The notes below the pieces were generated by a model, which worked only from the letters and a program-made list of their open reading frames with translations, was not told where the DNA came from and did not search any database. From positions 10,514-74,513 of the forward strand of contig LBWJ01000008.1 of NCBI GenBank assembly GCA_000993595.1: 64,000 nucleotides of DNA, in the 5' to 3' direction. Shown piece by piece: positions 54,534 to 57,516 of the stretch; position 1 is the first letter of the stretch; the number at the start of each line of letters is the position of its first letter. Both the position numbers and the translations under genes were made by a program. The stretch is from Candidatus Peregrinibacteria bacterium GW2011_GWC2_39_14 (GTDB lineage Bacteria; Patescibacteriota; Gracilibacteria; UBA1369; UBA12463).

Positions 54534-56333
54534 ATGGCGCCAGGATCATCATTGCCAAAAGGACCGGGTAGTTCTGCTGAAAGCGTAACACCGGGAAGTG
54601 AAACTCAAGAGGTATCACAGCTTTCGCAAGAACAAAAAGAGCAGATGGAAAAAGAAAAAAGTCGCAAAGAACGATTGCGTTTGAGCGTGGAAATGGAAGT
54701 TGACCGTCTTCAGAAAGAAATAATTGATAAGCCCGAAGGCGATAAATTGCATTATAAAGAAATAGCGGAGATAAGAAATACAGGCGCGATGCCCGGATAT
54801 AAATGGTTTGATTTTTCAAATGGTGCAGAGATTCCAAATGAAAAAATCGTTGATTGGTTAATGGAAAAAGAAATTGTCGTTTCAAGCGAACACGACGAAA
54901 ATATTAAGAAGTTTACAGAAAGCGTTTCAAAACAAAAAGATGAAGATAAAGCGAAAACAATAGAAGAATATGCAGATGATTCGAAGACTTCAATATTCGA
55001 TATCCAATCCAATCAGCAATATGAAAAAATGTCTGGCGCGTTTACGAAAGGTGAATTTGTTAAAGGTAAAGCTTTGGAAATTGATTTGAAAGGAAACGCA
55101 AAGTTCGAGCTTTACATTGGGCTTGGACATATATTGCCACCTTCAGTCCAAAAGGTGAAAGTTATAGACAATAAGGGCGCAGTAAGAATTGGCTCAAGGG
55201 ATATAAGAGATAAGGTTGGTTATTTTGATGATCAAGGCTACATTCCGGTTTTTAGCGGGTATAAAGTTGAGATTATTGAGACAATAAGCGAGGAAGGAGA
55301 TTTATATAAAGAGCTTCTTAAAAAAGAATCGGATTTTTATAAAGGTCAAAAGGAAATTGCGCAAAACGCAGCATGGAAAGAAGAAACAATCGATCAGATG
55401 CTCAAAGAAGGTAAGGATGAAAATAGCGAATATGTTGCAGATTTCAAAAATATAGAAAAAATTCTTTTAGCCAAAAGGATTAGAATCAACGCTCAGGCTT
55501 TGATGACGGATGCGCAAATTTTGCGCTCATTGAAGGGAAAAGGTTCGGAAAAGCTTGGAGACTGGGATTCGGAAAAAAACGAGATTAAGGATCCGGAAAA
55601 CAAAACATTAAAACTTCTTGAAAGACTTAGCCAAGGCGGATCATTCGGACAATTTGTATTGCTTCAGGGATACGAATTCAAGCTTGGCGACCTGGATAGA
55701 ATTGAGAAATACGCTAATGACGAGCAGTTGATGCTAAAAGATTTTGAAAAAGCATTTGCTAAAAAAGGTGGCTTGCCTATGAGTTTTGAAGAGGTGACGA
55801 AAGAGCTCGTTCTCGGAGAGGGTGCGATGAATTTGAATGAAGTTAGAAATCACCCTCAATTTAGAAGAAGAATGGCTGAAAATGGGATGCCTTTTGTGAC
55901 TCCGGATGATTATATAAACATGTTTAGAAATCGCCCAGGGGTATCACCAAGTCAAATGATGATTAATCCAAACATTTATAGAGATGGAAAAATTCTCGGC
56001 GATCTCATGTGTGCAAGATACGTTTCGGACGTGCTTGGAATTAAGCCCCCGGATTATTCAGCACCATCTTTATTCACAAGGGTTGTAAAAGGAGGTGGAA
56101 AAATTATCCCGGAATCTAAAAACTTAAAGAAAGGAGATTTGATCTTTTTCAGGGGTACATACGGGGACAAGTGGAATACGATAAGCCACGTTGGCTATAT
56201 AATTGACGCCGGAGAAGGGTATGTAACAATGCGACACAATGGTGGACCGGTGAATGGAGTTCAAACAAAAACTATAAGGCTGAACGATCCATCTTCAAAA
56301 AAATTCTACGCAGGGGTGCGCATAGCGAGCTAA
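54534..56333 (+). CDS. large charged protein with C-terminal NlpC/P60-like domain
   Basis: MCARYVSDVL (Cys), GDLIFF, SHVG (His), MRH; no N-terminal signal peptide. Confidence 0.75.
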   Translation: MAPGSSLPKGPGSSAESVTPGSETQEVSQLSQEQKEQMEKEKSRKERLRLSVEMEVDRLQKEIIDKPEGDKLHYKEIAEIRNTGAMPGYKWFDFSNGAEIPNEKIVDWLMEKEIVVSSEHDENIKKFTESVSKQKDEDKAKTIEEYADDSKTSIFDIQSNQQYEKMSGAFTKGEFVKGKALEIDLKGNAKFELYIGLGHILPPSVQKVKVIDNKGAVRIGSRDIRDKVGYFDDQGYIPVFSGYKVEIIETISEEGDLYKELLKKESDFYKGQKEIAQNAAWKEETIDQMLKEGKDENSEYVADFKNIEKILLAKRIRINAQALMTDAQILRSLKGKGSEKLGDWDSEKNEIKDPENKTLKLLERLSQGGSFGQFVLLQGYEFKLGDLDRIEKYANDEQLMLKDFEKAFAKKGGLPMSFEEVTKELVLGEGAMNLNEVRNHPQFRRRMAENGMPFVTPDDYINMFRNRPGVSPSQMMINPNIYRDGKILGDLMCARYVSDVLGIKPPDYSAPSLFTRVVKGGGKIIPESKNLKKGDLIFFRGTYGDKWNTISHVGYIIDAGEGYVTMRHNGGPVNGVQTKTIRLNDPSSKKFYAGVRIAS

Positions 56334-56442
56334 AACTGCGAGTTTCGTTTTTAAGATTTCTAATTTGTTTCGTTTTTCGATTTTCGAATTCCGAAACAGT
56401 GGTGGGCCCGTCCCGACTTGAACGGGAGACCTACCGGTTATG

Positions 56443-57102
56443 CTTATCACTACAACTTTCGTTGCCCCTTTCGGGTTTGTAATCTGGACTATACCTTGTC
56501 GCCAGACCGTTCCGCAAAGCGGAACACAGGTCTATATAAATAAAGGCGACCCTGCCGTCTAGTCTCTACACCTTATCGCCGCGCCGTTAGACGAGCGATC
56601 TTGGCTCGGGATTGCCATTTTTGCTCGAAAGCAATTTTTAGGTTTCCCCGAATTTGACAGGTTATCATTTGAGAATTACTTCTCAAACAGCCCTTGGCTA
56701 TGAATTATGTCGAGCGTATAATATGGTTATGACATTAAAGTCTAACTGTATCATATGTGGTATCAAACTGCATGGTAGGCAAAAAATGTTTTGCTCTATC
56801 GGCTGTAAGAACAAATACCATCAATGTTACGAATCTCAGAAGCGTAGGGGATTTTCAAGAAAATTAAAATTAGTAAGCGATGCAGGAGGCTGTTGTTCGG
56901 CTTGCGGTTATAATAAAAACCTAGCAGCTTTAGTTTTTCATCATGTAGATTCTAAAAAGAAAAAATTCAAGCTTGATACAAGATCTTTATCTAATCGCAC
57001 GCTTTCATCAGTATTAGCCGAAGCGAATAAATGCATTTTGTTGTGTCAAAATTGCCACGCGGAAATTCATAATCCTCACGTCGATTTAAATCCATTGCCT
57101 TA
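56443..57102 (-). ncRNA. group I self-splicing intron (IC3-like), 660 nt
   Basis: Follows exon U33 and ends in G. Core motifs P AAATTCGGGGAA, Q AATCCCGAGC, R GTAGAGACTAGA, S AAGGTATAGTCC. P7 GACTA/TAGTC; IGS GGCTG pairs with exon CGGCU. Confidence 0.9.
56694..56722 (+). promoter_or_regulatory. intron-internal antisense promoter for the HNH ORF
   Basis: TTGGCT-17 nt-TATAAT; in-frame ATG 6 nt downstream (56729). Confidence 0.6.
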
Positions 57103-57103
57103 A
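56729..57103 (+). CDS. HNH endonuclease with N-terminal Zn-finger (putative homing endonuclease)
   Basis: CIICG..FCSIGC; CSACGY..L.FHH.D..K.F; KCILLCQNCHAEIH. Confidence 0.85.
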   Translation: MTLKSNCIICGIKLHGRQKMFCSIGCKNKYHQCYESQKRRGFSRKLKLVSDAGGCCSACGYNKNLAALVFHHVDSKKKKFKLDTRSLSNRTLSSVLAEANKCILLCQNCHAEIHNPHVDLNPLP

Positions 57104-57180
57104 GCCGGCTGCTCTAACCAACTGAGCTACGGGCCCAAGAAATCTTTTTAATGAACAATGCTATATCATTCTATATATGA

Positions 57181-57230
57181 AATTATCAATAATCAATAAT
57201 CAAACGATTTTCAATTATCAATTTTCAATT
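57181..57230 (+). repeat. degenerate heptamer repeat
   Basis: aattatc aataatc aataatc aaacgat tttc aattatc aattttc aatt. Confidence 0.65.
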
Positions 57231-57240
57231 AAAAATACGC

Positions 57241-57516
57241 TTAGGCTTTTGGCTTCTCAATCTTCGCCAATTCCGCAGCCAATCTTGACTTCTTTCTTGC
57301 CGCATTATTCTTGTGTAAAACAAAAGTCTTCACAGATTTGTCGATTGTTGAATATGCTTCAGGAAGCAATTTCTTTGCTTCATCGACTTTTTTATTTTTC
57401 GTTAAAAGAAGAAAATCTTTAATAACGGATTTTACTTTTGCGCGAACAACATAGTTTCTTTTCCTGTTTGCTTCGCTCTTTCTCATGGATTTTTTTGCTG
57501 ATTTCGTGTTAGGCAT
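57241..57516 (-). CDS. rpsT: 30S ribosomal protein S20
   Basis: MPNTKSAKK..RN...K..IK..IDK....LHKNNAARKKSRL. Confidence 0.96.
   Translation of the reverse strand: MPNTKSAKKSMRKSEANRKRNYVVRAKVKSVIKDFLLLTKNKKVDEAKKLLPEAYSTIDKSVKTFVLHKNNAARKKSRLAAELAKIEKPKA

Follow-up and report, generated by a model that had tools for sequence, protein, structure and literature searches.

An antisense HNH endonuclease ORF in the P1 loop of a group I intron splitting a bacterial tRNA(CAU) gene, with a predicted leaderless promoter

Among described systems, the closest to the element reported here is the group I intron in the tRNA-fMet gene of Synechocystis PCC 6803, which interrupts the anticodon loop of a tRNA(CAU) after U33, the classical fMet intron site termed '2Ug' in a preprint (Williams 2020), and which encodes the endonuclease I-Ssp6803I. 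The open reading frame (ORF) for I-Ssp6803I is also inserted in P1, according to the passage of PMC3073962 that covers it, and I-Ssp6803I is the only enzyme named in those passages of the reviews that treat endonuclease-bearing bacterial tRNA introns. Here we describe a group I intron at the same anticodon-loop site in a tRNA(CAU) gene of Candidatus Peregrinibacteria bacterium GW2011_GWC2_39_14, a groundwater organism with a small genome. The locus lies in a 64,000-nt stretch of contig LBWJ01000008.1 (positions 10,514 to 74,513 of the forward strand, assembly GCA_000993595.1), the whole of which we call the window and to which all coordinates given without a contig refer. In Synechocystis the host is the initiator tRNA, and a PD-(D/E)XK enzyme is encoded by a sense ORF overlapping P1 and P2, whereas here the host is probably tRNA-Ile2, and an HNH-type enzyme is encoded antisense to the intron behind a promoter-like site of its own.

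The Azoarcus-type Ile2.5Ug intron resembles the present one in its host, a tRNA(CAU) with a GGGCC acceptor stem, and is linked to the same HNH lineage, but it lies after U36 (CUCAU|AA), 3 nt downstream of the site here, and in its classical form is short and ORF-less. Nuclease genes that lie within a group I intron and, as here, read against the host gene are represented by I-DirII of Didymium rDNA, which has its own promoter (in the account given in that part of PMC3073962), and by gp14 of mycobacteriophage LittleE, an antisense HNH gene in the group I intron of a capsid gene (as the pertinent section of PMC3706429 has it). Unlike the gene described here, I-DirII is a eukaryotic His-Cys-box enzyme with an RNA polymerase II (Pol II) promoter, a spliceosomal intron and a poly(A) tail, and the LittleE host gene is protein-coding. 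Neither of the two lies in a tRNA intron, and for neither is there a description of a leaderless promoter built on a P1 strand. The words 'antisense' and 'opposite' do not occur in the 2014 review of bacterial group I introns (PMC3984707), and our literature searches found no paper that places an HNH gene in a tRNA intron of a bacterium, though the table and supplements of Williams (2020) may list an Ile2.2Ug class or long ORF-containing introns.

The composite is a widespread variant of the mobile group I intron with a homing endonuclease. We consider it likely that it is a mobile intron residing in a tRNA-Ile2(CAU) gene that is probably the only one in the genome, and that the antisense HNH homing-endonuclease gene in its P1 loop is expressed from its own sigma-70-type promoter as a leaderless mRNA.

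The split tRNA gene and its antisense ORF

The tRNA gene and its intron are composed of the following parts.

57103 to 57136, minus strand: 5' exon of tRNA(CAU), tRNA positions 1-33, with the 3' end ...GGCU (U33)
56443 to 57102, minus strand: group I intron of 660 nt between U33 and C34, class '2Ug', last base G
56400 to 56442, minus strand: 3' exon of tRNA(CAU), CAUAA...ACCA, with CCA encoded
56462 to 56712, minus strand: ribozyme core as delimited by Rfam Intron_gpI
56668 to 56687, minus strand: P2 hairpin of 8 bp with a GUAA loop
57168 to 57196, minus strand: candidate tRNA promoter TTGATT, 17-nt spacer, TAGAAT, ~30 nt upstream of tRNA position 1

The intron matches Rfam RF00028 over the full model (1-253) with 58.4 bits (cut-off 50, E 5e-14). 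When all neighbouring positions were tried, a single splice solution was found with a 5' exon ending in U and an intron ending in G, the omega-G being 56443, and joining the exons in silico yields a 77-nt tRNA(CAU) with a canonical cloverleaf. Independent confirmation of the junction comes from the uninterrupted tRNA of a genome of the same genus (G003), in which both exon ends abut exactly. The host is a tRNA precursor with a group I intron, and splicing is predicted. The candidate tRNA promoter scores 9/12 on consensus match only. Plain ARAGORN makes no call for the split gene at 56400-57136, which is recovered when long introns are allowed. We rejected the label it then receives (Leu-UAA, intron after position 37), which conflicts with the U-1/omega-G rule for group I introns, as well as the anticodon labels given to other split genes (Gln-CUG etc.), which assume the archaeal/eukaryal intron position and become CAU on re-mapping. 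Standard tRNA finders miss an essential tRNA that is split by such introns.

The P1 helix and the ORF are positioned as follows.

56688 to 56693, minus strand: internal guide sequence GGGCUG, which pairs with exon CGGCU and intron U+1, with a U-1:G wobble
57089 to 57107, minus strand: P1 5' strand, consisting of exon C-5 to U-1, intron U+1, an AA internal loop and the extension GGCAAUGGAUU
56696 to 56706, minus strand: 3' strand of the P1 extension, AAUUCAUAGCC, which overlaps the plus-strand -35 hexamer
56729 to 57103, plus strand: ORF for a 124-aa zinc-ribbon and HNH endonuclease, antisense to the intron and filling loop L1

The guide sequence sits immediately 5' of the P2 hairpin. Past a two-by-two A loop, P1 is extended by 11 pairs with one mismatch, formed between 57099..57089 and 56706..56696, and the minimum-energy fold of the ORF-less relative contains the same P1 and extension. 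P1 was compared over 28 rows of the 2Ug intron class, in 27 of which our script found a guide sequence (no match in L061, and a mis-pick in L005). The U-1:G wobble is present in 27/27 of these rows, and exon position -3 covaries with guide position 4, the pair being G-C in 16 rows and A-U in 10, with the mis-picked L005 as the remaining row. The distance from the intron start to the guide sequence is 400-411 nt in 25/26 ORF-bearing rows (395 in the mis-picked L005) and only 22 nt in the ORF-less L012, which indicates that the ORF occupies the terminal loop of P1. The P1 5' strand is complementary to the last five codons of the ORF and its stop, and the TAA stop (57101-57103) overlaps the exon-intron junction by one base because A57103 complements exon U33. 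An earlier note on this DNA had placed the ORF antisense between the 5' splice site and the guide sequence, in the P1 loop and with its stop overlapping the junction; the guide-sequence positions and the ORF-less intron agree with that placement.

The ORF has 63 homologous proteins at E<=0.001, most of them 124 aa long and aligning from residue 1, and its start was placed at ATG 56729 on account of these N-termini. The alternative starts, ATG 56723 and TTG 56654 (149 aa), were rejected since homologues begin at 56729, and 56723 abuts the -10 box. The protein is composed of an N-terminal C-x2-C ... C-x3-C zinc ribbon followed by an HNH core with Cys pairs, His-His, Asn and His, and C56, C59, H71, H72, C102, C106, N108, C109 and H110 are invariant in an alignment of 24 sequences. 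PHROG HNH families match at E 5.7e-18 and 7e-18. These matches and the invariant HNH and Cys residues bear out the nuclease type proposed earlier, and with it a lack of relationship to the PD-(D/E)XK enzyme that the Synechocystis fMet intron encodes. The ratio of nonsynonymous to synonymous substitution rates (dN/dS) is 0.09-0.13 in 7/15 homologue pairs, the remaining 8 being saturated in dS and giving no value, and the differences are concentrated at third codon positions. An AlphaFold model of the 124-aa protein has a predicted local distance difference test score (pLDDT) of 93.2.

Searches of curated and structural collections gave weaker or negative results. The Pfam HNH models remain below their gathering scores (PF01844, 16.9 bits for a cut-off of 21.4; PF21368, 17.7 for a cut-off of 23), and no NCBIfam family matches the ORF product. 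The top structural matches are to HNH nucleases, but they are weak. Foldseek has Cap5 as its best match (E 0.04), then Gme HNH, T5 SciA, T4 endonuclease VII and EcoKMcrA; VIA likewise gives weak matches, with Cap5 (Z 4.2, root-mean-square deviation 3.9 over 62 residues) followed by IscB, EcoKMcrA and T4 endonuclease VII. Cas9 HNH domains are also among the nearest solved folds, with weak scores, and a sequence search of the Protein Data Bank (PDB) has EcoKMcrA as its sole match (E 0.004). The product is under purifying selection and, judged by its sequence, belongs to a divergent and uncurated branch of the HNH superfamily. Gene callers have given its homologues the names 'hypothetical' or 'Zn ribbon protein', with one call truncated to 105 aa.

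As to which tRNA is the host, the genome contains three CAU tRNAs, two of them non-initiator. Bacterial initiator tRNAs carry a 1:72 mismatch. Positions 1 and 72 pair as G1-C72 in the split tRNA and are mismatched as C1xA72 in another CAU tRNA, on contig C6, so that the host is most likely tRNA-Ile2. The presence of tilS (208 bits) indicates that the genome needs a tRNA-Ile2(CAU), and no other candidate for its gene is found among the genome's 42 ARAGORN tRNA calls (39 plain, 3 intron-containing). The host has the same acceptor stem, GGGCC, as the tRNAs that carry Azoarcus-type '5Ug' introns in related loci. Its median identity to these 5Ug hosts is 75.7%, versus 69.9% for the other elongator-type CAU tRNA, a modest gap on which the assignment leans and which must be set against it. 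Taken together, these sequence features make tRNA-Ile2, and not tRNA-fMet, the probable host. The comparison with tRNA-fMet drawn in the earlier note holds for the insertion site, CU|CAUAA (33/34), which coincides with the fMet.2Ug class position; it fails for the host, which has the G1-C72 pair and coexists with a separate initiator tRNA. The site also differs from that of the Ile2.5Ug class, which lies after U36 (CUCAU|AA) and not, as here, after U33. Identity rules for IleRS and TilS based on E. coli were not used, and the genome's own tRNA-Ile(GAU) breaks one of them.

Predicted promoter and translation start

The following promoter-like site precedes the ORF.

56694 to 56722, plus strand: promoter-like site TTGGCT, 17-nt spacer, TATAAT, with the -10 box ending 6 nt before ATG 56729

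The two hexamers (TTGGCT 56694-56699 and TATAAT 56717-56722) are present beside the guide sequence as had been reported, and the site scores 10/12, the best of 7 in 56200-57400, where shuffles lead one to expect 3.2. The -35 hexamer directly adjoins the guide sequence and complements the 3' strand of P1; it recurs as TTGGCG in the ORF-less intron of another genome of the genus (G001). The -10 hexamer falls in a stretch that is absent from G001, so that it is part of the gene cassette, not of the ribozyme. It is positioned at -12..-7 relative to the A of ATG 56729, and in the standard promoter geometry a -10 box at -12..-7 puts the transcription start on the start codon.

TAnnnT is found at -12..-7 (-13 in one copy) in 15/17 Patescibacteria/Chloroflexota copies despite diverged spacers, a count weakened by the fact that the copies compared are kin and not independent. 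L003 is counted as a carrier only when read at its first ATG, and the box is missing in L013 and L061. None of these 17 copies has a Shine-Dalgarno-like motif. In the genome itself, TAnnnT stands at -12 in 11.0% of 985 long ORFs, compared with 1.8% per position genome-wide, and a Shine-Dalgarno-like motif precedes only 2.4% of them, both figures resting on crude first-ATG gene models. This enrichment at gene starts suggests that leaderless starts are normal in this host, and initiation in this organism may be largely leaderless or independent of Shine-Dalgarno motifs. The comparative evidence, namely the recurrence of the box among the copies and the frequency of the leaderless geometry in the genome, supports the prediction, first made in the earlier note, that the HNH ORF has its own leaderless promoter.

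Other observations tell against it. The -10 box occurs in 0/7 Acidobacteriota/Armatimonadota copies with a mapped start, and GGAAG is found in 4/7 instead, which implies that the mode of expression differs between lineages of the HNH family. The scan of 56200-57400 revealed no terminator-like site after the ORF on the plus strand. A search of sequencing runs turned up no RNA run containing the stretch, and three metatranscriptome runs from the same sample or study contain next to none of its sequence words. The gene might be intact and yet not be expressed from the predicted promoter, being silent for the most part, or reached by transcription that continues from the plus-strand gene upstream (54534-56333), or served by a promoter located in the sequence antisense to the ribozyme core; TAnnnT would then be an inherited sequence or a feature of the L1 RNA. 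Such a situation would suit the Acidobacteriota/Armatimonadota copies, where another promoter must serve, and the plus strand after the upstream gene's stop, where there is no terminator-like site before 56595. It sits poorly with the distance from box to ATG, which is kept in the 15/17 copies across several phyla while the spacer sequence is not conserved, with the absence of the -10 stretch from the ORF-less relative, and with the six-fold enrichment of leaderless geometry at this genome's gene starts. We regard non-use of the predicted promoter as unlikely, and expression from a leaderless promoter remains the preferred interpretation.

Allele states and the proposed homing cycle

The HNH protein is found in 7/41 related genomes, including this one, and in 2/5 genomes of the genus. 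A DNA search of the genus together with alignment A2, in which this genome is G000, distinguishes three allele states. In a second genome (G002) the element is 99% identical. The same tRNA occurs in G001, where the intron lacks ~380 nt, corresponding exactly to the P1 loop, and a short loop is capped onto a P1 extension of 10 pairs. G003 has no intron. Since a genome of the same genus carries the same intron without the ORF, the HNH gene is a separable insert. The suggestion in the earlier note that an HNH gene invaded the intron independently is upheld to that extent; a one-off event it is not, as 26 loci and 4 probable ones share the layout. Frameshifted or prematurely stopped copies are found elsewhere (L019, L040, L056-L060), and the pattern of gain, decay and loss fits that expected of a homing element.

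In the cycle that we infer for this element, the intron would self-splice from the pre-tRNA to give an AUA-reading tRNA. The HNH gene, on the opposite strand in the terminal loop of the extended P1, is predicted to encode a protein with a four-cysteine zinc ribbon and a zinc-bound HNH core. It would carry its own promoter because the tRNA precursor is not translated, with the -35 box in the P1 3' strand, the -10 box in the inserted cassette, and transcription starting on the A of the ATG or beside it. The leaderless HNH mRNA would run against the tRNA gene, and the antisense orientation and leaderless promoter together would uncouple expression from a precursor that is never translated. The enzyme is predicted to nick or cut the intronless tRNA-Ile2 gene around the anticodon loop, and repair from an intron-bearing copy would spread the intron and the gene together. 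An intron at 33/34 or 36/37 would split the target and so shield its carrier.

The same geometry allows for a use by the host, in which the cell has recruited antisense transcription of this gene to tune the splicing or level of tRNA-Ile2, either through convergent transcription or through an RNA duplex with the P1 loop. The mRNA would be complementary to L1, to the P1 5' strand and, if unterminated, to the 5' exon and the tRNA promoter region, and in Saccharibacteria the ORF itself crosses the whole 5' exon. The same-genus genomes that lack the ORF or the intron speak against a needed host function, however, and the patchy distribution is that of a selfish element. We judge such co-option to be extremely improbable, and modulation of tRNA maturation by convergent transcription is a conjecture. 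The selfish homing cycle set out above is preferred.

Layouts across the wider family

A family scan with one genome per species gave at least 536 encoding places, from which 80 loci were kept. The search for homologous HNH ORFs within tRNA introns, proposed in the earlier note, yields 26 antisense loci, 4 probable antisense loci and 7 sense loci among these 80. The antisense ORF is in the P1 loop of a 2Ug tRNA(CAU) intron in the 26, and this layout occurs in Chloroflexota, Gracilibacteria, Saccharimonadia, Moranbacteria, Acidobacteriota and Armatimonadota; in the probable members the splice site was unresolved by our script (L052, L059) or the locus is cut or broken (L037, L055). In 17 loci, with two similar ones (L044, L048), the HNH gene is free-standing ~70-90 nt upstream of the tRNA and divergent from it, and the introns of the 17 are ORF-less, short (233-274 nt) and of the 5Ug type. 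This layout is mostly found in Gammaproteobacteria, including the cultured Lysobacter daejeonensis GH1-9 and Thermomonas sp. LB-4. The seven sense loci, all from Bacteroidota and including the cultured Hymenobacter coccineus CCM 8649, have the gene inside a 5Ug intron ahead of the core. In 18 loci from Solirubrobacterales and other Actinomycetota metagenome-assembled genomes (MAGs), a more distant relative is found just upstream of an intronless tRNA-Asn, and six loci (L011, L012, L047, L064, L066, L081) have other tRNA-linked layouts.

Two variants of these layouts are of separate note. In several Saccharibacteria/Saccharimonadota copies (L007, L008, L015 and L018; P0015) the antisense ORF has no stop at the junction and crosses the whole 5' exon, so that the C-terminal tail produced by read-through is a reverse translation of the D-arm. 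In a Gemmatales MAG (L047:2440-2972), the first ~27 nt of a tRNA(CAU) precede the HNH gene and a complete tRNA follows. This looks as if the gene had inserted into the tRNA gene with duplication of its 5' part, an intron-free occupation of the same target.

In viral contigs at least 540 encoding places were found and 79 loci kept (L101-L179), with tRNA genes within 1.5 kb in 72/79. A tRNA(CAU) often abuts the 3' end of the viral ORF on the other strand. Viral calls with long 'introns' (L117, L130, L132) may represent further intron-borne copies. Among relatives in cultured phages the identity does not exceed 46%, and their annotation is either HNH endonuclease or hypothetical protein. Homing-endonuclease ORFs within tRNA gene clusters are described for T5 and T4 in the portion of PMC2330249 that concerns them, a siting like that of the 72/79 viral loci.

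The viral relatives raise the question of whether the nuclease has tRNA-Ile2 as its homing target at all. It might instead be a selfish or defence-type HNH enzyme directed at another target, such as phage DNA or phage tRNA clusters, that has lodged in a harmless intron loop. The abundance of relatives in viral contigs, with tRNA genes near 72/79 of the viral loci, would agree with this, as would the more distant relatives that adjoin or sit inside tRNA-Asn and tRNA-Thr genes. In 55/80 genome loci, however, the gene is inside or right beside tRNA(CAU) (26 and 4 probable antisense 2Ug, 17 free-standing 5Ug, 7 sense 5Ug, and L012), and L011 and L047 also flank an intronless tRNA(CAU). In addition, the three allele states in one genus fit homing, and both insertion sites, 3 nt apart, would split one anticodon-loop DNA target. 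We therefore think another target quite improbable and favor homing to tRNA-Ile2.

The layouts cluster on a tree of 114 members, with 12 changes compared with 64.6 in shuffles. Only 12/109 branches are well supported, a number too small to claim either a single or a multiple origin of the antisense layout. Free-standing enzymes that target an intron insertion site and are then captured into the intron are known as collaborative homing (described in the corresponding part of PMC3984707). The Gammaproteobacteria free-standing loci, by analogy, look like the pre-capture state: the free-standing gene beside an ORF-less intron would practise collaborative homing, and the in-loop layouts would be its captured descendants. 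The described cases of collaborative homing and those of T5 and T4 differ from the present one in that they involve introns of phage protein genes or intron-free tRNA clusters, and SegB is a GIY-YIG enzyme.

A more far-reaching proposal, which in our assessment is evenly balanced, is that a single HNH lineage specialised on tRNA-Ile2(CAU) has settled in three ways: free-standing and divergent by an ORF-less intron, in sense in the P1 loop at 36/37, and antisense in the P1 loop at 33/34. These would be living intermediates on a path from collaborative homing to a composite mobile intron, spread over at least 6 phyla of cellular genomes with relatives in phages. The antisense leaderless form would then be a general solution for expressing a protein from an untranslated, fast-processed RNA gene, and bacterial tRNA introns would gain their first described HNH homing system. 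The family provides many natural replicates, with alleles that have intron and gene, intron only or neither, and with free-standing, sense and antisense genes. Because these include cultured strains, both the assembly of a mobile intron and the expression of a gene within a tRNA gene are directly testable.

Three further loci carry distant HNH relatives in sense orientation inside 509-563-nt introns, L087 in tRNA-Asn, and L088 and L089 in tRNA-Thr. They come from genomes of the same family and order (E 1e-11 to 1e-17) and suggest that in these small genomes several tRNA introns have been colonised by the HNH family. The present genome has two further split tRNA genes. One, at C11:167496-167773, is a tRNA-Asn(GUU) gene with a 203-nt group I intron (Rfam, 108.9 bits); the other, at C10:35002-35265, is a tRNA-Thr(GGU) gene with a 188-nt insert that is called by ARAGORN and has no Rfam match at E<=0.001. 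No tRNA-Tyr is among the ARAGORN calls on the genome.

A small repeat unit is located within the P8 hairpin of the intron.

56499 to 56540, no strand assigned: 42-nt palindromic repeat unit, with dispersed copies elsewhere

Copies of the palindrome are found in the same genome at C7:51341-51382 and C11:123825-123862 (95% and 92% identity), and G001 has 18 matches, including three copies 63 nt apart (G001:C88:806-973). The palindrome looks like a small dispersed repeat that also landed in the P8 loop of the intron.

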